Positions 7,971-21,661 of a DNA stretch of 21,943 bases are shown here, in pieces; position 1 is the first letter of the stretch; every line of letters begins with the position of its first letter. This DNA is from Candidatus Hydrogenedentota bacterium. GTDB taxonomy: Bacteria > Hydrogenedentota > Hydrogenedentia > Hydrogenedentales > SLHB01. The notes under the pieces are model-generated. The model did no database searches. It was not told the DNA's origin and saw nothing but the letters and a program-made list of their open reading frames with translations. Both the position numbers and the translations under genes were made by a program. The DNA is taken from assembly GCA_016209895.1 (NCBI GenBank), contig JACQVH010000215.1, positions 1 to 21,943 of the forward strand, given 5' to 3'.

Positions 7971-7974
7971 TGAA

Positions 7975-8124
7975 GTCAGGAGTCAGGAGCATGCAGACAG
8001 AGTGGTACGAACGTACGAGATATTCCCGACAAGAGTCGCAGCGATGGTTGATGCCCGTACCTGCGGACTTTCAGTTGGTCTCACGTCCTTATTCTGACTC
8101 CTGACTCCTGTCTCCTGACTCCTC
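7975..8124. repeat. Inverted heptamer-repeat arms bracketing a 105-nt unique core. Left arm is (GTCAGGA)x2 at 7976-7989. Right arm is (TCCTGAC)x5 with one TCCTGTC variant at 8092-8126.
   Basis: Read directly. The arms are reverse complements of each other (13/14 match) and are themselves tandem 7-mers. The core contains a small palindrome GTACGAACGTAC (8005-8016). The element lies in the pheA-to-PPIase intergenic gap, ending 20 nt before the GGAGGT RBS of the next gene. Confidence 0.6.
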
Positions 8125-8146
8125 AAGCAACTTACTGGAGGTCAAA

Positions 8147-8959: not shown

Positions 8960-9197
8960 TCACGTCAGCAACGCGCCCCCGTGGTGGAAGGAGTCATCGC
9001 GGAGATCAAACACGGGATGAGTATCCGGAAGGGGAGCCTCCCGGCTGTGGCGGAACCTCCTGGATAAGGTAAGTGTGCAGATGCGTTCCGTGTCACAAAA
9101 TGCCGGTGTGGCGTGCCCCGCCTCGAGACATGAGAGTACGCAAGAGCCCGCACGCCGGCGTTGCACTCAACTTCGGAGGTCAAATGGAGACTAACGG

Positions 9198-12477: not shown

Positions 12478-13587
12478 ATGGCCTTCAAGATCGTCCCCTA
12501 TACGGATGAACATGTTGCGGCCGTGCGCGAGTTTAACCGGCGGCTGCGTGAAGGCGGGGTCGCTTTTGCGATGCCTGAGTTGCCCGTTCCCGACTGGTTG
12601 CCGATGTTAGCCGATCGGCGAATCTTCCAGGAGTATTACGTGCTCTTGGAGGACACGGTGGTTCGAGGCGGCTACGTGCTGAAGCACCAGGATTTCTTTT
12701 TGTCGGGAGAGGTGCTATCTATTGCAGACTATCGGATGCCCATATCAGAGGGCGTCGTTGACAAGGCATATAATCTGGTCGGCGTTCAACTGCTCACGGA
12801 TGCTTTGAAAAGACAGCCCGTGATGTACGGCCTTGGAATGGGCGGTTTCGACCAACCCATCGCCAAGATGCTGAAGGCCATGGGCTGGACGATGTTCGCC
12901 GTCCCGTTCTTCTTCTGGGTCAATCATCCGTTTCGCTTCTTGCGGAATATCGTGGCGCTGCGCAAGAGCGCGATGCGGCGTTTCCTTCTCGATCTATTGG
13001 CCGTTTCCGGACTGGGTTGGCTCGGAATCAAATTACTCCACTGGTTTCGACGTGAAAAATGGCATGAGTCGTGGGCATGGGAAACGCTCCCTCAGTTCGG
13101 GAGTTGGGCGGATGAATTATGGGAAGCCTGTAAGAACCAACACCCGCTGGCCGCGGTCCGTGACGCGGCGACGCTCAACATCCTATATCCTCCCGAAAAG
13201 AAAGAATTCATTAAGCTGAAGGTGTCCAGCGGAGACCGCGTCGTGGGCTGGGCCGTGCTGCTGAATACGCCCATGATCGGACACAAGCAGTTTGGAAACA
13301 TGCGGGTTGGGACGGTCGTAGACTGCCTTGCCTTGTCGAACCACAAACCGAAAGTAGTGTTCGCCGCGGTGGAGTGCCTGACTGCCGCCAGTGCTGATAT
13401 TGTCATTACCAACCAGTCCGATCAGAACTGGTGCGCCGCATTTCGTCGCACAGGCTTTCTCAGCGGCCCGTCAAACTTCATCTTCGCCGCGTCCAAGAAG
13501 CTCGCCGCGCACTTACAGCCGTTCGATGAGAAAAAGAACTCCATCCATATGACCCGCGGCGACGGCGACGGACCGATACATTTGTGA
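12478..13587 (+). CDS. Hypothetical protein, possibly a FemAB/BioF2-like GNAT-fold acyltransferase
   Basis: 369-aa ORF, 9 nt after the deacetylase-like gene. No SD, but it is the first in-frame ATG after an in-frame stop. Size and position (next to a CE4 deacetylase-like gene) match FemAB-related proteins of PEP-CTERM-type loci. I cannot see an unambiguous motif, so the function is tentative. Confidence 0.4.
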   Translation: MAFKIVPYTDEHVAAVREFNRRLREGGVAFAMPELPVPDWLPMLADRRIFQEYYVLLEDTVVRGGYVLKHQDFFLSGEVLSIADYRMPISEGVVDKAYNLVGVQLLTDALKRQPVMYGLGMGGFDQPIAKMLKAMGWTMFAVPFFFWVNHPFRFLRNIVALRKSAMRRFLLDLLAVSGLGWLGIKLLHWFRREKWHESWAWETLPQFGSWADELWEACKNQHPLAAVRDAATLNILYPPEKKEFIKLKVSSGDRVVGWAVLLNTPMIGHKQFGNMRVGTVVDCLALSNHKPKVVFAAVECLTAASADIVITNQSDQNWCAAFRRTGFLSGPSNFIFAASKKLAAHLQPFDEKKNSIHMTRGDGDGPIHL

Positions 13588-13590
13588 AAT

Positions 13591-13758
13591 GAGCAATGAG
13601 CAACGAGCAATGAGTCACGAGAGACAAGTATCGAGTACCGAGTGACGAGTAACAAGCAATCAGGGACCAAGAACCGGAAACCGGAAGCTCCGAACCAGGG
13701 ACCAGAAACCAGAAGCCAGGGACCATCCACTAGCCACTGACCACTGGTCACTGAACAC
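13591..13758. repeat. Array of 24 phased degenerate heptanucleotide tandem repeats (consensus nAGnnAC; units GAGCAAT, GAGTGAC, CAGGGAC, CAGAAAC, CGGAAAC, TGACCAC ...) filling the entire gap between convergent genes
   Basis: Read directly. From 13591 the sequence parses without slippage into 24 consecutive 7-mers. 21 of the 24 end in C and 19 carry A at position 6. It begins 4 nt after the TGA of the + gene and ends at the stop codon of the - strand Dabb gene (13758-13760). Confidence 0.85.
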
Positions 13759-14168
13759 TACTCTTTCGGCCAGTAGTCGATCACCCAGATTTTCTCGAGA
13801 AACGGTCGGGCCATGGCGACGAAATCCTGGTGGGCTTGGTGGGCGCGGTACGCTTCCATGGATTCGACGTCGTGGAAGGTTAGGAGAAAGCAGTGGGTGA
13901 AGCCTTCAGCGCGGGACTGGGCGTTCACGTCCGTGCCCCATTCGAAATCGCGGATTTCGGCGATCTTAGCCGGTAGTTGGCGAAACGCGTTCTCTATCGT
14001 AGCAATCTGTTCCGGCGACGTGCCCTCTTTGAACTTGAACAGGACCACGTGGCGCAACAGGGAATGATCTTGTGTCGGCGACGTAGCGACGACCGAGCCC
14101 TTGATCGAAATGCAGGCAGGTAACAACAACCCGGTCAAAGCGATTGACAACCACAAACTTCGCTTCAT
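13758..14168 (-). CDS. Dabb-family (stress-responsive dimeric alpha/beta-barrel) protein with lipoprotein-type signal peptide
   Basis: Real gene is the C-terminal 136 codons of ORF 13758..14735: MKRSLWLSIALTGLLLPAC (lipobox LLPAC), then HVVLFKFKEGTSPEQIATIENAFRQL...HQDFVAM, typical of the Dabb/stress-responsive protein fold. Its ATG overlaps the TGA of the upstream membrane-protein gene (ATGA at 14165-14168). The long N-terminal extension in the ORF track is out-of-frame overlap with that gene and was rejected. Confidence 0.7.
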   Translation of the reverse strand: MKRSLWLSIALTGLLLPACISIKGSVVATSPTQDHSLLRHVVLFKFKEGTSPEQIATIENAFRQLPAKIAEIRDFEWGTDVNAQSRAEGFTHCFLLTFHDVESMEAYRAHQAHQDFVAMARPFLEKIWVIDYWPKE

Positions 14169-15106
14169 TGCCGTTCCTCCTTGCTTAGCCGGTTGATTTC
14201 CCGAAAGGCGGGAGACACTTCTTCCAATCGAGATTCGGCAGCCGGGTCCGCGCCTTGGTCCTCGGCGGCGTCGAGTTGATTGATCGCAACCGCCGTGAGG
14301 GCAATCGGATCGAAGACAATCCATTTCACCATGAAGCTCAACACCACGGCGGTGAGAAAAAACACCAACCGCATCGTGCTCCATCCGGTACTTGCCGGCA
14401 AGAACATGGCGATACTTCCGAGGGGAACGAGGAAAAGCACCGTGAGCGGGACCAATAGCGCATAGCCGACGGCGCAAAATAACGCCGCGAGACGTAGCGA
14501 GTCCGATCCGGAATGGGCGTACTTGACCACCGAATCCTTTACGGTAGTGAAAACTTCCCGACTTTCCGTTCGAAACACCTTGGCCAGAATCACGTATGGC
14601 AGGTAAATCAGAGCGCCATTCGCGGCAAGTTTCGCCAGCTTGGGAGAACCGGCAAGCCTCGCGATTGGTACCAGTGACTCCAGGGAGAGTACCGAACGAT
14701 GGGTATCGCGCAGTGCGCGGAGAACGAGGCCACACAGTTGCCCAGCGCCGGTCGCGCTACGGAACCTGTCCGACACACGGGAACGCGCCCAGTTCGGTTC
14801 CGAGACGCCCCACGGCAACTGGCCTTCGTTGAGGATTTCCGTAATCAACGCGAGGTAGCCCAGCTTGATGGATGCGAACGGATCGAATCCGGCGTAGCGC
14901 GCCGCGAGGGGCAGTGCGCTCAAGACTGCGGAGAGAATGAAGAGGAGCAAGCTTGCGCCAAAGCCGAATGCCAGCCCGACGAAGCCGAGGATCATCAAGT
15001 ACGCGATCACACCTGCGCCGACCACGCCGTAAATCCCAGCCCGGTAGATCAAGTACTGCATCGGCTGGAACGCGATCTGCACCACCCGGCCCCAGTTGAC
15101 ATCCAT
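14165..15106 (-). CDS. Hypothetical polytopic integral membrane protein (about 313 aa)
   Basis: ORF 14165..15133. The second ATG (MDVNWGRV.., 15104-15106) is preceded by AAGGAGGACAGGACG, a strong SD at correct spacing. At least 6 hydrophobic helices and an acidic C-terminal tail. Overlaps the start of the Dabb gene by the 4-nt ATGA. Confidence 0.6.
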   Translation of the reverse strand: MDVNWGRVVQIAFQPMQYLIYRAGIYGVVGAGVIAYLMILGFVGLAFGFGASLLLFILSAVLSALPLAARYAGFDPFASIKLGYLALITEILNEGQLPWGVSEPNWARSRVSDRFRSATGAGQLCGLVLRALRDTHRSVLSLESLVPIARLAGSPKLAKLAANGALIYLPYVILAKVFRTESREVFTTVKDSVVKYAHSGSDSLRLAALFCAVGYALLVPLTVLFLVPLGSIAMFLPASTGWSTMRLVFFLTAVVLSFMVKWIVFDPIALTAVAINQLDAAEDQGADPAAESRLEEVSPAFREINRLSKEERQ

Positions 15107-15203
15107 CGTCCTGTCCTCCTTCCAGCACTGCATCCGGCGACCGCACCAACGAGACTATTCTCCGTATTTTCTTCCCCGGAGTCCAACTTTGTGCCAATTG
15201 GGG

Positions 15204-15312
15204 GTAAGGGACGAAAGGGACCCATGTAAGGGACCCAAAGGACTCTGTTCTTCCGGGCACGGAGGAGGAGAAGGACGGCAACGACGCCAAGGACAACGAC
15301 GACACCAGGGAC
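15204..15312. repeat. Cluster of direct repeats of AAGGGAC(C) / AAGGAC / CAGGGACC (at least 7 copies) in the 207-nt gap between the ferredoxin stop and the membrane-protein start
   Basis: Read directly: TAAGGGAC 15205-15212, AAGGGACCC 15215-15223, TAAGGGACCC 15227-15236, AAAGGAC 15237-15243, GAAGGAC 15273-15279, CAAGGAC 15291-15297, CCAGGGACC 15303-15311. The word AGGGACC is also a recurrent unit of the heptad arrays at 13591-13758 and 15675-15765. Confidence 0.45.
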
Positions 15313-15313
15313 C

Positions 15314-15673
15314 TTATGCCGGCGAAGGACGTTCGACAACCGGTGGCGGTGACTGAGTGGTCACGTTTGATGGCTGGCCGTCGAGGGTGGCGATAATTGA
15401 CTCGAGCAGATACTCCAATTCCGCTTCCGATACGTGGCTGAACCAACGGTTTTCTGGGAAGACCATCAGGTTGGGACCATGCTCGCACTTATCCTGGCAG
15501 CCGGACTGGCTCACGCGGATTTTGCTCTGAAGGTTCCGCGCTTTGACCATGCTTTTCAATTTATCGCGGAGTTCTTTGCCGCCTTTATTGGCACAGCATT
15601 CACGCTCGCCCGGCTCGCGCTGGTTGCAACAAACGAAGACGATCTTCTGAAATGGGAGGGCATGTTCTAGCAT
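15314..15673 (-). CDS. Thioredoxin-like [2Fe-2S] ferredoxin family protein
   Basis: 119 aa with the cysteine pattern of thioredoxin-like 2Fe-2S ferredoxins / NuoE-like proteins: IVFVCCNQR...GERECCANKGG...SGCQDKCEHGPNLMVFP. Start ATG at 15671-15673. The upstream 48 nt consist entirely of heptad repeats that supply an AGGAA SD-like sequence. Confidence 0.65.
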   Translation of the reverse strand: MLEHALPFQKIVFVCCNQREPGERECCANKGGKELRDKLKSMVKARNLQSKIRVSQSGCQDKCEHGPNLMVFPENRWFSHVSEAELEYLLESIIATLDGQPSNVTTQSPPPVVERPSPA

Positions 15674-15674
15674 A

Positions 15675-15765
15675 GGTTCCTGGTCCCTGGTTTCTGGTTC
15701 CCAGTTATCGGTTTCCGGTTTTCAGTTACTCGGCATTCGGTACTCGGAACTCGTCACTTGTAGCG
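15675..15765. repeat. Array of about 13 phased heptanucleotide repeats (plus-strand units GGTTCCT, GGTCCCT, GGTTTCT, GGTTTCC, CGGTACT ...), the reverse-complement family of the 13591-13758 array; extends into the last 13 codons of the large minus-strand gene
   Basis: Read directly. The reverse complement gives AGGAACC, AGGGACC, AGAAACC, GGAAACC, AGTAACT, AGTACCG, AGTGACG, the same words found in the array at 13591-13758 but inverted. The stop codon of the large gene (15722-15724) and its C-terminal residues LQVTSSEYRMPSN are encoded by repeat units. Confidence 0.75.
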
Positions 15766-20064: not shown

Positions 20065-20109
20065 GACCTTGCGTAACAGGTAGCCCGAGGCGGAAAGAAA
20101 GGTTTGCCG

Positions 20110-20688
20110 ATGACAAAAGCGTGTGCGCTCAATCCGCAAGCAATTGATTCCAACACGTATCCGGAGACGCTGCCCAACGTCTGCGTCGAAGGGCCGCGTG
20201 GACCCGTCTGCGCATGGTTTTCCGAGCGTGGCTTATCCCGACTCCACCTGTGTGGGCTGGACCTCTGTACCCTGTGGAATGCCGCCGCAATAGGCATGTA
20301 TCGGCGGCGGCATCATCAGCCAACGAGGAACGAAGCAGACCCGCGGGCCGCACGCTTGGCGGCAGCCTTGAGACGGTACCTCCAGGGAGAACCGGAAGAC
20401 TTCTCCGACGTCGAGATCGACCTAAGCGCCGGCACCGAGTTTCAGCAGGCGGTCTGGGAGGCGGCGCGCAAAGTCGCGTGGGGTAGACTATCCTCTTACG
20501 GAGACTTGGCCCGTCTGATAGGCCGTACCACGGATACGGCGCGCGCCGTAGGCCAGGCGTTGGGCGCAAACCCCATCGCTATCGTCGTTCCCTGTCACCG
20601 GTTCGTCGCGTCAGACGGCTCCCTCGGCGGCTTCTCCGGCGGACTCGAATGGAAGCGGGCGCTGCTGCGGCTGGAAGGACACTTCTGA
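20110..20688 (+). CDS. ogt: Methylated-DNA--protein-cysteine methyltransferase (O6-alkylguanine-DNA alkyltransferase)
   Basis: Active-site motif IVVPCHRFV (PCHR), helix-turn-helix region (YGDLARLIGRTTDTARAVGQALGANP) and C-terminal GGLEWKRALLRLEG. ATG at 20110 is 9 nt after a GAAAGG-type RBS. The ORF-track start at 20104 is a TTG two codons upstream. Confidence 0.8.
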   Translation: MTKACALNPQAIDSNTYPETLPNVCVEGPRGPVCAWFSERGLSRLHLCGLDLCTLWNAAAIGMYRRRHHQPTRNEADPRAARLAAALRRYLQGEPEDFSDVEIDLSAGTEFQQAVWEAARKVAWGRLSSYGDLARLIGRTTDTARAVGQALGANPIAIVVPCHRFVASDGSLGGFSGGLEWKRALLRLEGHF

Positions 20689-20775
20689 GTGCGGAATGTG
20701 GATTGTGGATTGCGGAATGAACCAATTACGGATTGTGGAATGTTGAACGCCAAGAGCCAAAGGCCAAAGGAACCG
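20689..20775. repeat. Phased heptanucleotide repeat array immediately after the ogt stop: GTGCGGA, ATGTGGA, TTGTGGA, TTGCGGA ... then TTGTGGA, ATGTTGA, ACGCCAA, GAGCCAA, AGGCCAA, AGGAACC
   Basis: Read directly. Begins 1 nt after the TGA of ogt. 7-nt register with one 2-nt slip around 20724-20732. Unit family (nTGnGGA, nnGCCAA) differs from the 13591 and 15675 arrays. Confidence 0.65.
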
Positions 20776-20842
20776 ACTTATGGTTTCTCGCGTTGCGTGA
20801 ATCGGTCAAACCGAGACTGAGCGCGACATCCCCATTTGCCCA

Positions 20843-20858
20843 GTCAAGCAAGCTTGAC
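20843..20858. terminator. Palindromic hairpin GTCAAGC-AA-GCTTGAC between convergent ogt and esterase genes
   Basis: 7-bp perfect arms read directly, located mid-way in the 220-nt convergent intergenic gap. No U-tract. Could equally be a protein-binding palindrome. Confidence 0.3.
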
Positions 20859-20873
20859 CGTGGCGCCCGATCA

Positions 20874-20908
20874 TCGTCGTTTAGAATTTAGAATCTGCAA
20901 TTTGGAAT
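20874..20908. repeat. Short heptanucleotide repeat array TCGTCGT, TTAGAAT, TTAGAAT, CTGCAAT, TTGGAAT abutting the stop codon of the minus-strand esterase gene
   Basis: Read directly; five consecutive 7-mers with consensus TTnGAAT ending at the TGA (20909-20911, minus strand) of the hydrolase gene. Confidence 0.5.
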
Positions 20909-21661
20909 TCACTTCTTCTGTTTTAGCAGCCACTGGATGGTCTTCGCATCGCCATAGGCGTCGTCCCAGGAATTGTGCTTTGCCTTGGGGATTTCCGTGT
21001 ATTTGATCTGCCCGCCCGCCTTCTTCACCGCCTCGACCATTTTGCGGGACTCCGCGGGCTTGACGACGTCGTCCTCGGCGCCGTGAAACGCCCAGATCGG
21101 CAAGGCCGCAAGTGCTGTGGCGTCCTCCTCTTTTCCGCCGCCACAGATCGGCATTAACGCGGCGTATACGTCCGTGCGCTTTGCCCCCAACATCCACGTG
21201 GCGTAGCCACCGAGGGAAATTCCGGTCAGGTAGATGCGGTTCGGGTCAATGTTGTACTCCGCGCGGGTTTGTTCGAGCGCTTTCTCGATATGCGATACGG
21301 CGCGGTCCCAGAAACCCAACCCCGGGCACTGCGGAAAGACCACCACGCACGGGAATCGCTCCGGATGCTTGCGGATGGCGTGACCGATCCCCACGTCGGT
21401 CGGTAGCAGCCCATCGTTGCCGCGTTCCCCGATCCCGTGCAGAAACACGATCAACGGCCACCCCTGCGCCCGGTCATAGTTGCGCGGCACATAGACGGCA
21501 TAGGCCCGTTCCTTGCCGTCTGCTACCATGGTCTTATTGAGGAAGCCCGTCACAATCCCTTGGCTCTCTGCCGCTTGGCCGCTGATTGACTTCGTCGTAG
21601 CACAACCGTTGCTCAACATCACGACCGCAAACACAGCCACGAAGGTCCATTTCACGTTCAT
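20909..21661 (-). CDS. Alpha/beta-hydrolase family esterase (phospholipase/carboxylesterase-like) lipoprotein
   Basis: Signal peptide with lipobox (VVMLSNGCATT). Esterase core motifs: LIVFLHGIGERG (oxyanion region), nucleophile elbow GISLGG, and C-terminal FHGAEDDVV / His region (KAKHNSWDD). Confidence 0.8.
   Translation of the reverse strand: MNVKWTFVAVFAVVMLSNGCATTKSISGQAAESQGIVTGFLNKTMVADGKERAYAVYVPRNYDRAQGWPLIVFLHGIGERGNDGLLPTDVGIGHAIRKHPERFPCVVVFPQCPGLGFWDRAVSHIEKALEQTRAEYNIDPNRIYLTGISLGGYATWMLGAKRTDVYAALMPICGGGKEEDATALAALPIWAFHGAEDDVVKPAESRKMVEAVKKAGGQIKYTEIPKAKHNSWDDAYGDAKTIQWLLKQKK

Follow-up and report, generated by a model that had tools for sequence, protein, structure and literature searches.

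Tandem repeats of heptanucleotides, reported from bacterial genomes as early as 1990, are the most frequent repeats with a non-triplet unit. Here, we describe such arrays in a window of 21,943 bp (the complete contig JACQVH010000215.1 of assembly GCA_016209895.1, from a Candidatus Hydrogenedentota bacterium; GC content 58.9%), centering on the gap at 20689-20908 that separates the stop of an ogt-like gene from the stop of a converging alpha/beta-hydrolase (esterase) gene. The gap contains period-7 tandem repeats in untranslated DNA that start at both stops. Additionally, comparison with other loci showed a strand-polar order that holds across unrelated unit families, in which purine-rich heptads are placed 5′ (in the sense strand, directly past a stop) and pyrimidine-rich heptads 3′, where they either precede the start of the following gene or are the antisense reading of a converging gene's array.

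Several described systems resemble these arrays. Tandem heptanucleotides of cyanobacteria are described as short tandemly repeated repetitive (STRR) sequences (Mazel et al. 1990, as cited in PMC4692102). The window arrays are likewise dispersed tandem heptanucleotides of non-coding DNA, and here too one genome has several unit families, but they fall outside STRR sensu stricto, as their units and their lineage (Hydrogenedentota, not heterocystous cyanobacteria) differ. The STRR units are CCCCAGT, TTGGTCA, and CAACAGT. More broadly, heptanucleotides are the most abundant class of long simple sequence repeats (SSRs) in most genomes, for which slippage, related to the polymerase footprint, was proposed (Mrazek et al. 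2007, as cited in PMC4679880 and PMC4692102). Long SSRs, as summarized in the same two papers, are intergenic and phylogenetically scattered, and in the window a lag of 7 nt was the only enriched non-triplet period. As the class requires, three or more head-to-tail copies of a unit beyond chance were present, and the arrays were in non-coding DNA at multiple dispersed loci (five gaps in 22 kb); they differ from the long SSR reports in coming from Hydrogenedentota, in having many unit families within 22 kb, and in occupying one 170-nt gap in a single phase.

The closest parallels in placement are the G-rich heptamers of Xanthomonas (GGGAATC) and Nostoc (GGGGAYT, that is, GGGGA(C/T)T), which are 89-93% intergenic, lie on average 28 nt from the end of the upstream ORF versus 160 nt from the next ORF, are under-represented between divergent genes, form 70-75 convergent inverted pairs in Xanthomonas, and have had no function found (Rehm et al. 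2015, PMC4692102). As in those genomes, arrays in the window and in related loci were near the end of the upstream ORF, had the G-rich strand as the coding strand, and formed convergent inverted pairs; in contrast, there were several unrelated families per genome, and polarity concerned purines versus pyrimidines, not G-tracts. Moreover, four or more tracts of at least three Gs (GGGNATC or GGGGAYT) were absent, since the array next to ogt has GG doublets only and the other families lack G runs. TAACTGA repeats of marine Beggiatoaceae are mostly located a few nucleotides upstream of starts, and a post-transcriptional role with binding of S1, Csp, or CsrA was proposed for them (MacGregor 2015, PMC4679880). 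They share with our arrays the tandem heptamer, the intergenic position, and a distribution over scattered phyla, but are a single pre-start family, while the window has many families and its gap arrays abut stops. In Nostoc, heptamers near promoters had modest effects on reporters, and an unidentified binding partner was postulated (bioRxiv 10.1101/2022.06.06.494920).

Finally, the ribosome termination structure (RTS) is a stable structure just downstream of a stop that was proposed to act as a translation insulator (PMC7518266). Like RTS and the repetitive extragenic palindromic (REP) sequences with their bacterial interspersed mosaic elements (BIME), the window arrays may be structure-forming 3′ intergenic elements that begin at a stop. 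However, they lack a conserved REP sequence, REP and RTS lack a period, and many of the arrays were unstructured, such that they do not belong to either class. Thus, the repeat class, its stop-proximal placement (in Xanthomonas and Nostoc; PMC4692102), and polarity for G-rich families were already known. Of most interest here is that the purine-then-pyrimidine order holds generally, in unrelated families and even in pairs that are not complementary. No earlier report of heptad arrays in Hydrogenedentota was found in literature searched for heptamer repeats generally and for GGATTGC, though not for the phylum by name.

Heptad arrays between the ogt and esterase stops

The gap and its two flanking genes were resolved into the following features, using Tandem Repeats Finder (TRF), self-identity at a lag of 7 nt (lag-7), and the registers of the units.

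20104..20688, plus strand: ogt-like methylated-DNA-protein-cysteine methyltransferase gene (Pfam PF01035, E=2.5e-30); its protein, like PheA of the window, is 100% identical to one from a Hydrogenedentes metagenome-assembled genome
20690..20724, plus strand: array 1, four TGnGGAw units (20690-20717) and one decayed unit, equivalent to GGAWTGY (TRF, lag-7, registers)
20728..20746, plus strand: array 1b, two GGAwTGT units (20730, 20737) of the same family as array 1, register +2 (registers)
20747..20775, plus strand: array 2, three to four RRGCCAA units, purine-rich, in a third register (TRF 20756-20770, lag-7, registers)
20776..20875, no strand: unique non-periodic core with local hairpins (lag-7 identity 0.26)
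20876..20908, minus strand: array 3, 4.3 copies with 78% match, starting directly after the esterase stop (TRF 20880-20909)
20909..21661, minus strand: alpha/beta-hydrolase (esterase/peptidase S9-like) gene (Pfam), its stop the complement of 20909-20911

Lag-7 self-identity was 0.61 over 20689-20775 and 0.62 over 20876-20911, versus 0.26 in the core; other lags gave about 0.08 to 0.36 in the gap, and none stood out in the core. TRF reported period-7 arrays at 20693-20716, 20756-20770, and 20880-20909. The original prediction, an earlier model-made note on the letters of this DNA, had described about 12 phased 7-mers after the ogt stop. Heptads were indeed present, but they form three short arrays in different registers. 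The units of array 1 begin at 20690, 20697, 20704, and 20711, the array starting 1 nt past the ogt stop, and the stop itself (TGA, 20686-20688) shares the 7-nt register of the GGA in the units downstream. In the sense of ogt, array 1 is rich in purines and in G (20689-20722; purines minus pyrimidines, R-Y=+10; G-C=+11). Array 2, with GCCAA units at 20749, 20756, and 20763, has R-Y=+11, and the ogt-side arrays as a whole have R-Y=+25 over 87 nt.

On the esterase side, phased heptads were again found, in 4.3 imperfect copies and not the five that had been claimed. Read in the esterase sense, array 3 runs ATTCCAA ATTGCAG ATTCTAA ATTCTAA, and alignment of the sense-oriented arrays showed it to be an imperfect reverse complement of array 1. 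The two families are plausibly a decayed inverted pair, a reading that is only suggestive. The core between the arrays, which is the sole non-repetitive part of the gap and is flanked by arrays starting at both stops, holds the predicted palindromic hairpin (GTCAAGC-AA-GCTTGAC, 20843-20858; local hairpin -12.4 kcal/mol). The hairpin is followed by CGUGGCGCCC and has no U-tract, so that the combination of GC-rich stem-loop and U-tract that marks a Rho-independent terminator is missing from the gap; promoter-like sites were not found there either. An independent Logan assembly of SRR12113390 (L001), on which the esterase protein was matched exactly, was identical through the gap, which is therefore not an assembly accident.

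A 43-codon ORF with a GTG start (20689-20820) directly follows the ogt TGA and ends in the next array. Elsewhere, a 37-codon ORF within 7993-8106 follows the first array downstream of pheA and likewise ends in the next array, and an AGGAG motif supplied by the AGTCAGG array lies 3 nt upstream of its ATG. There was no evidence for translation of either ORF, and nothing in favor of coding among the small ORFs listed for the ogt/esterase gap.

Placement and strand order of heptad arrays

Across the contig, 61 windows of 28 nt had at least 20 matches at lag 7, while no other lag between 2 and 12 produced a single such window, which bears out the claim that the period stays constant as the unit varies (TGnGGAw, RRGCCAA, TTTAGAA, AATGAGC, AACCAGR, CACTGAC, and AGTCAGG). 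All arrays of the window were in gaps apart from about 35 nt that overlap the end of one ORF. The arrays outside the ogt/esterase gap were as follows.

7974..7992, plus strand: AGTCAGG, 2.3 copies, purine-rich, 3 nt past the pheA stop (TRF; composition over 7971-7992)
8094..8126, plus strand: CTGACTC, 4.3 copies, pyrimidine-rich, 23 nt ahead of the cyclophilin start (TRF; reverse complement of the 7974 array)
13588..13757, plus strand: a whole 170-nt convergent gap made of 24 heptads in a single phase (TRF, lag-7, composition)
15674..15760, minus strand: units of two families, GAGTnnC and AACCRGR as read in the sense of a 1166-aa gene, filling the 48-nt gap to the next start (TRF)

Specifically, the units of the 170-nt gap drift from AATGAGC through nnCGAGT and AACCAGR to CACTGRn, and the tract is purine-rich to about 13725 and pyrimidine-rich over 13726-13757. 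The array at 15674-15760 enters the 3′ end of the 1166-aa ORF by about 35 nt, and its portion at 15674-15721 is purine-rich in the sense of that gene. In total, six stops were abutted (within 0-4 nt) or overlapped by arrays, namely those of pheA, the gene at 12478-13587, the Dabb gene, the 1166-aa gene, ogt, and the esterase gene. The asserted start within 0-4 nt of a stop thus applies at these six, but arrays also precede starts, and the assertion that every 3′ gap longer than about 40 nt carries an array fails at 8960-9197, after the cyclophilin gene, where there is none.

We compared the window with 80 pheA-anchored loci from GTDB species genomes (81 sequences in all), calling genes with our own heuristic ORF caller trained on codon usage and arrays with TRF. 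These sequences contained 84 period-7 arrays, 47 of them in gaps: 19 in 20.6 kb of convergent gaps, 21 in 81 kb of tandem (same-strand) gaps, and 7 in 35 kb of divergent gaps. Array density was therefore about fourfold higher in convergent gaps, the enrichment that the original prediction had asked to be checked. An array edge was located within 6 nt of a stop in 17 cases versus 9.05 ± 2.1 expected when arrays are placed at random within those gaps (P<0.0005), and within 6 nt of a start in none versus 3.0 expected, and control periods of 5, 8, 10, 11, and 13 nt had no stop or start bias in the same sequences. The excess at stops is beyond chance but not exclusive, because pyrimidine-rich arrays do precede starts in same-strand gaps, both in the window (8094-8126) and in an 11-kb metagenome contig (L129). 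Furthermore, for 10 of 17 arrays scored as antisense within an ORF, the 5′ end of that ORF is 23-177 nt away.

To this set we added metagenome contigs recovered with the pattern RGAWTGY in three copies followed by RGA, which had at least 120 hits and of which 80 loci (L089-L168; GC 0.32-0.72) were analyzed. These loci contained 230 period-7 arrays of many families, versus 85 for the next commonest period. Where GGAWTGY arrays lay within 10 nt downstream of a stop, the G-rich strand was sense in 16 and antisense in 1, and inverted partners of GGAWTGY arrays were downstream in 15 and upstream in none. Among 62 neighboring array pairs, 33 were inverted and none direct; the purine-rich arm came first in inverted pairs by 32:0, and by 14:0 with one tie when the family used for selection was excluded. 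For stop-abutting arrays of unselected families, 13 were sense-purine-rich versus 3 that were not. Considering any neighboring pair, a purine-rich array preceded a pyrimidine-rich one in 19 versus 1 metagenome cases and in 7 versus 0 for the genome loci and window, or 26:1 in total. The genome-locus sample alone gave a trend in sense G>C skew (13:5, p ~0.1), purine content being the better descriptor.

The layout is plainest in L129 (2846-10064), where nearly all gaps in a run of same-strand genes open with purine-rich heptads at the stop and close with pyrimidine-rich heptads ahead of the following start. The window fits the rule at 7971-7992 with 8094-8126, at 13588-13757, at 15674-15721, and on the ogt side of the ogt/esterase gap. 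Stop adjacency and the near-absolute purine-pyrimidine order together show that placement is not random, and they tie the arrays to the direction of gene expression. That this order extends across families and phyla, including pairs that are not complementary, is explained by no published model.

Two features of the stop codon itself gave values close to expectation. An in-register stop that serves as the first unit, with TGA or TAA in place of RGA, occurs at ogt, but among 85 metagenome arrays only 12 had one, versus about 10.6 expected (hand count), and a stop trinucleotide on either strand was present, by eye, in about five of eight unit families of the window, GGAWTGY having none.

Origin of the arrays and competing explanations

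We consider it fairly probable that the two tracts of the ogt/esterase gap are heptanucleotide SSR arrays, of the STRR or long-SSR class, that were born by slippage and have a polarity linked to expression. Slippage is argued by the many unit families, by the single-phase drifting tract that fills a whole gap, and by the absence of arrays in the nearest relatives. Under this reading, replication slippage in lineages prone to it would create the arrays and change their length in steps of 7 nt, and the arrays would be retained only at sites where they break neither a reading frame nor a regulatory signal. A bias linked to transcription or translation would set their orientation, and the arrays probably form part of the transcribed 3′ untranslated region. 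The G/U-rich array next to ogt would then pair with the array next to the esterase gene on the ogt-sense RNA only, forming one long stem-loop that might work like a REP-type 3′ structure or as an insulating structure behind the stop, which is the weakest step of the scheme. The original prediction, which attributed the arrays to a function tied to gene ends and not to random microsatellites, thus stands in that placement is non-random and stop-linked, whereas the arrays are of a microsatellite-type class and no terminator-like site accompanies them.

Folding of the RNA gave the following picture. In the gap between pheA and the cyclophilin gene, the AGTCAGG and CCTGACT arrays are the two arms of a 176-nt hairpin (z=-3.45), and none of 200 shuffles folded as well. 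In the ogt/esterase gap, both the minimum free energy structure and the centroid of the plus-strand RNA pair array 1 with array 3, in a stem of 30 pairs that has 8 G.U and 0 A.C and includes both stop codons. The duplex of the two arrays was -23.0 kcal/mol on the ogt-sense RNA versus -5.8 on the other strand (P=0.0025 against shuffles, 0.02 against column-permuted arrays).

Several results weigh against this reading. Slippage is inferred and not seen, there being no orthologous gap for comparison (nearest Ogt 53% identical, nearest PheA 74%). Gene calls in the related loci are heuristic, and a caller that takes the longest ORF swallows stop-free arrays that precede a start; pre-start arrays are therefore under-counted among the stop-abutting metagenome arrays, which inflates the contrast between stops and starts (the 16:1 and 13:3 counts). 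Array 3 is neutral in composition (R-Y=+1), and the ogt/esterase locus therefore obeys the polarity rule on the ogt side only. As to structure, 13% of random windows of the contig equal array 3 in their pairing with array 1, the whole ogt/esterase gap folds no better than shuffles (z=-1.27 on the plus strand, +0.22 on the minus strand), and the arrays at 13588 and 15700 were unstructured (z -1.6, -0.7, -0.68). No terminator-like site was found within 20500-21100, and the whole window had no match to Rfam 15 at the gathering score. Finally, some purine/pyrimidine pairs of L129 are not complementary, and hairpin formation is therefore not a general purpose of the arrays.

The alternative that survives best is that the arrays are neutral microsatellites with no function, their polarity being a mutational asymmetry, for instance through R-loops past the stop. 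A single genome can hold extremely diverse units, lineages carry arrays sporadically, arrays begin exactly where translation ends, stop-abutting arrays are purine-rich in the sense strand, and published work has found no regulatory role (PMC4692102), all of which this explanation accommodates. In its R-loop variant, a hybrid of naked nascent purine RNA with pyrimidine DNA would expose the non-template strand, allowing 7-nt slippage in the purine-sense orientation only. Such purine-RNA:pyrimidine-DNA hybrids are generally of higher stability. However, the pyrimidine-rich arrays that precede starts in the same-strand gaps of L129 are not predicted by growth through R-loops. We therefore hold the neutral explanation to be possible but rather unlikely.

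A function of the inverted arms, either as a bidirectional terminator that is independent of a U-tract or as a hairpin that stabilizes the mRNA 3′ end, appears doubtful. The arms themselves speak for it, with purine arms always first among the inverted pairs (33 of 62), with the pheA gap hairpin and the pairing of the ogt-gap arms on the ogt-sense RNA, with window arrays that mark the ends of gene clusters, and with the 70-75 convergent inverted pairs of Xanthomonas (PMC4692102). As a terminator, the pyrimidine-rich 3′ arm would provide a weak RNA:DNA hybrid, like a U-tract, that is pulled out by the purine-rich 5′ arm. Yet spacers between arms are often 50-220 nt, many arrays are partnerless and unstructured, and L129 has non-complementary pairs in addition to pairs in nearly every same-strand gap, where termination would be odd; the terminator scan was negative and the pairing in the ogt gap unexceptional among random contig windows, as described above.

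A bolder proposal, which we would at present also call unlikely, is that heptad arrays constitute a phylum-spanning, strand-polar intergenic punctuation that acts co-transcriptionally. The 7-nt register would then come from a conserved machine, whether polymerase, ribosome, or an oligonucleotide-binding (OB)-fold protein, and not from chance slippage. The arrays might cause termination or pausing independently of a U-tract, by capture of the weak hybrid of the pyrimidine arm by the purine arm, or they might insulate or couple translation. That the arrays bind a protein each domain of which covers about 7 nt, and which coats the untranslated RNA or single-stranded DNA cooperatively (cold-shock domains, S1 OB folds, or CsrA on GGA), seems quite improbable to us. 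The constancy of the period across units and the GGA that recurs every 7 nt in array 1 would suit it, as would the S1, Csp, and CsrA proposals for TAACTGA repeats (PMC4679880) and the heptamer-binding partner postulated in Nostoc (bioRxiv 10.1101/2022.06.06.494920), but the units are too diverse for a sequence-specific binder and no candidate protein was linked to heptad-rich genomes.

Mobile DNA could in principle give a similar layout, the whole gap being a miniature inverted-repeat transposable element (MITE)-like unit with terminal inverted repeats made of heptads. Imperfect inverted arms do surround a unique core in both the ogt and pheA gaps, and the longest inverted repeat of the window (13617-13703 versus 15675-15761; 87 nt, 70%) joins two heptad tracts. 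Its similarity, however, is nearly equal when the tracts are offset by 7, 14, or 21 nt (0.63-0.70 versus 0.72), and the match therefore reflects shared unit families in the same order and is not provably a block copy, leaving a block-copy or mobile-element origin of these tracts unproven. Moreover, neither unique core has a second copy in the window, target-site duplications were not seen, and arms differ by whole heptads and by family, which makes a mobile origin very improbable. REP and BIME are marked by an imperfect palindrome of 20-40 nt with a conserved 5′ tetranucleotide, present in many identical copies and associated with a RAYT transposase. By comparison, no palindrome family is repeated in the window, and the arms are heptad arrays of varying family. 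Least credible of all is a G-quadruplex element as proposed for the G-rich heptamers of Xanthomonas and Nostoc, given that array 1, despite its exactly four GG runs (four GGA units at 7-nt spacing) on a G-rich sense strand downstream of an ORF as in PMC4692102, lacks G3 tracts and offers only GG doublets separated by 5-nt loops, and that most window families (AATGAGC, AACCAGR, CACTGAC, TTTAGAA) cannot form such structures.

Returning to the reading of slippage-born arrays with expression-linked polarity, the phenomenon is shown here in an uncultured phylum with many unit families, and stop placement together with purine-then-pyrimidine order is common to unrelated families and phyla. The order rule yields predictions, namely orientation-dependent effects on read-through, mRNA 3′ ends, R-loops, and downstream translation. 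It also calls for caution in annotation, as ORF ends and starts beside heptad arrays are easily mis-called.

Distribution among relatives and minor observations

Among the 80 pheA-anchored loci, lag-7 tracts were present in three from Hydrogenedentota (L018, L030, L034) and additionally in loci from Phycisphaerae (L047), a Nitrospira-labelled metagenome-assembled genome (MAG; L050), and Armatimonadota (L071, L083). The closest PheA relatives (L009, L045, L060; 72-74% identity) had no lag-7 arrays, nor were heptads found at two other Hydrogenedentes ogt loci. Presence in few lineages and absence from the closest relatives indicate a sporadic, lineage-specific trait. In the same loci, lags that are multiples of 3 corresponded to coding repeats, and other non-triplet lags were almost absent. 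Arrays of the ogt-side family, GGAWTGY, were likewise next to stops in two of these loci, L018 and L047. The forms (GGATTGC)n, (GGAATGC)n, and (AGATTGC)n are very widespread in metagenomes from soil and sediment (at least 120 contigs), and the repeat string GGATTGCGGATTGC had no mention in the searchable literature.

The gap just 3′ of pheA contained an array in six of the eight array-bearing sequences compared (the window, L018, L030, L034, L047, L050, L071, and L083), spanning three phyla and with differing unit sequences. These were located at 7971-8146 in the window, 11072-11131 in L018, 11055-11107 in L034, 11294-11338 in L047, 11112-11224 in L071, and 5036-5167 in L083. This gap holds the only arrays of the L083 locus and one of two intergenic arrays in L047. 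The recurrence could be chance or a property of the 3′ gap of that gene.

Some L129 array pairs look like recombinants of two complementary types (GACAAGC..ATTCCGC and GAATGCG..CTTGTCA). At 290-2821 of L050, the Nitrospira-labelled MAG of 43% GC, an 843-aa ORF has four period-7 arrays inside it, which is unusual for coding sequence, and the ORF may be spurious or decayed. Seven further loci labelled Nitrospiraceae, Nitrospirales, or Bathyarchaeia (L011, L015, L022-L024, L038, L040) have a PheA with 60-71% identity to that of Hydrogenedentes, far closer than the roughly 45-49% of genuine members of other phyla, which suggests that these MAGs are mislabelled or mis-binned.

Within the window, the last ~12 codons of the 1166-aa ORF, which has a TIG domain, consist of GAGTnnC heptads (15722-15760, minus strand), with the array crossing the stop, and the C-terminus of the protein appears to be repeat-derived. 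The next gene after it (15314-15673, minus strand) has weak DUF1636 and Suc_Fer-like matches, and an 18-nt repeat at 15271-15312 adjoins its stop at 15314. Gene calls over 13758-15721 are ambiguous: GC content at third codon positions changes phase several times, the Dabb domain is confined to the 3′ third of the ORF at 13758-14735, and ORFs at 14165-15133, 14757-15488, and 15314-15673 overlap in different frames, which points to mis-called starts or to frameshifts in the MAG.

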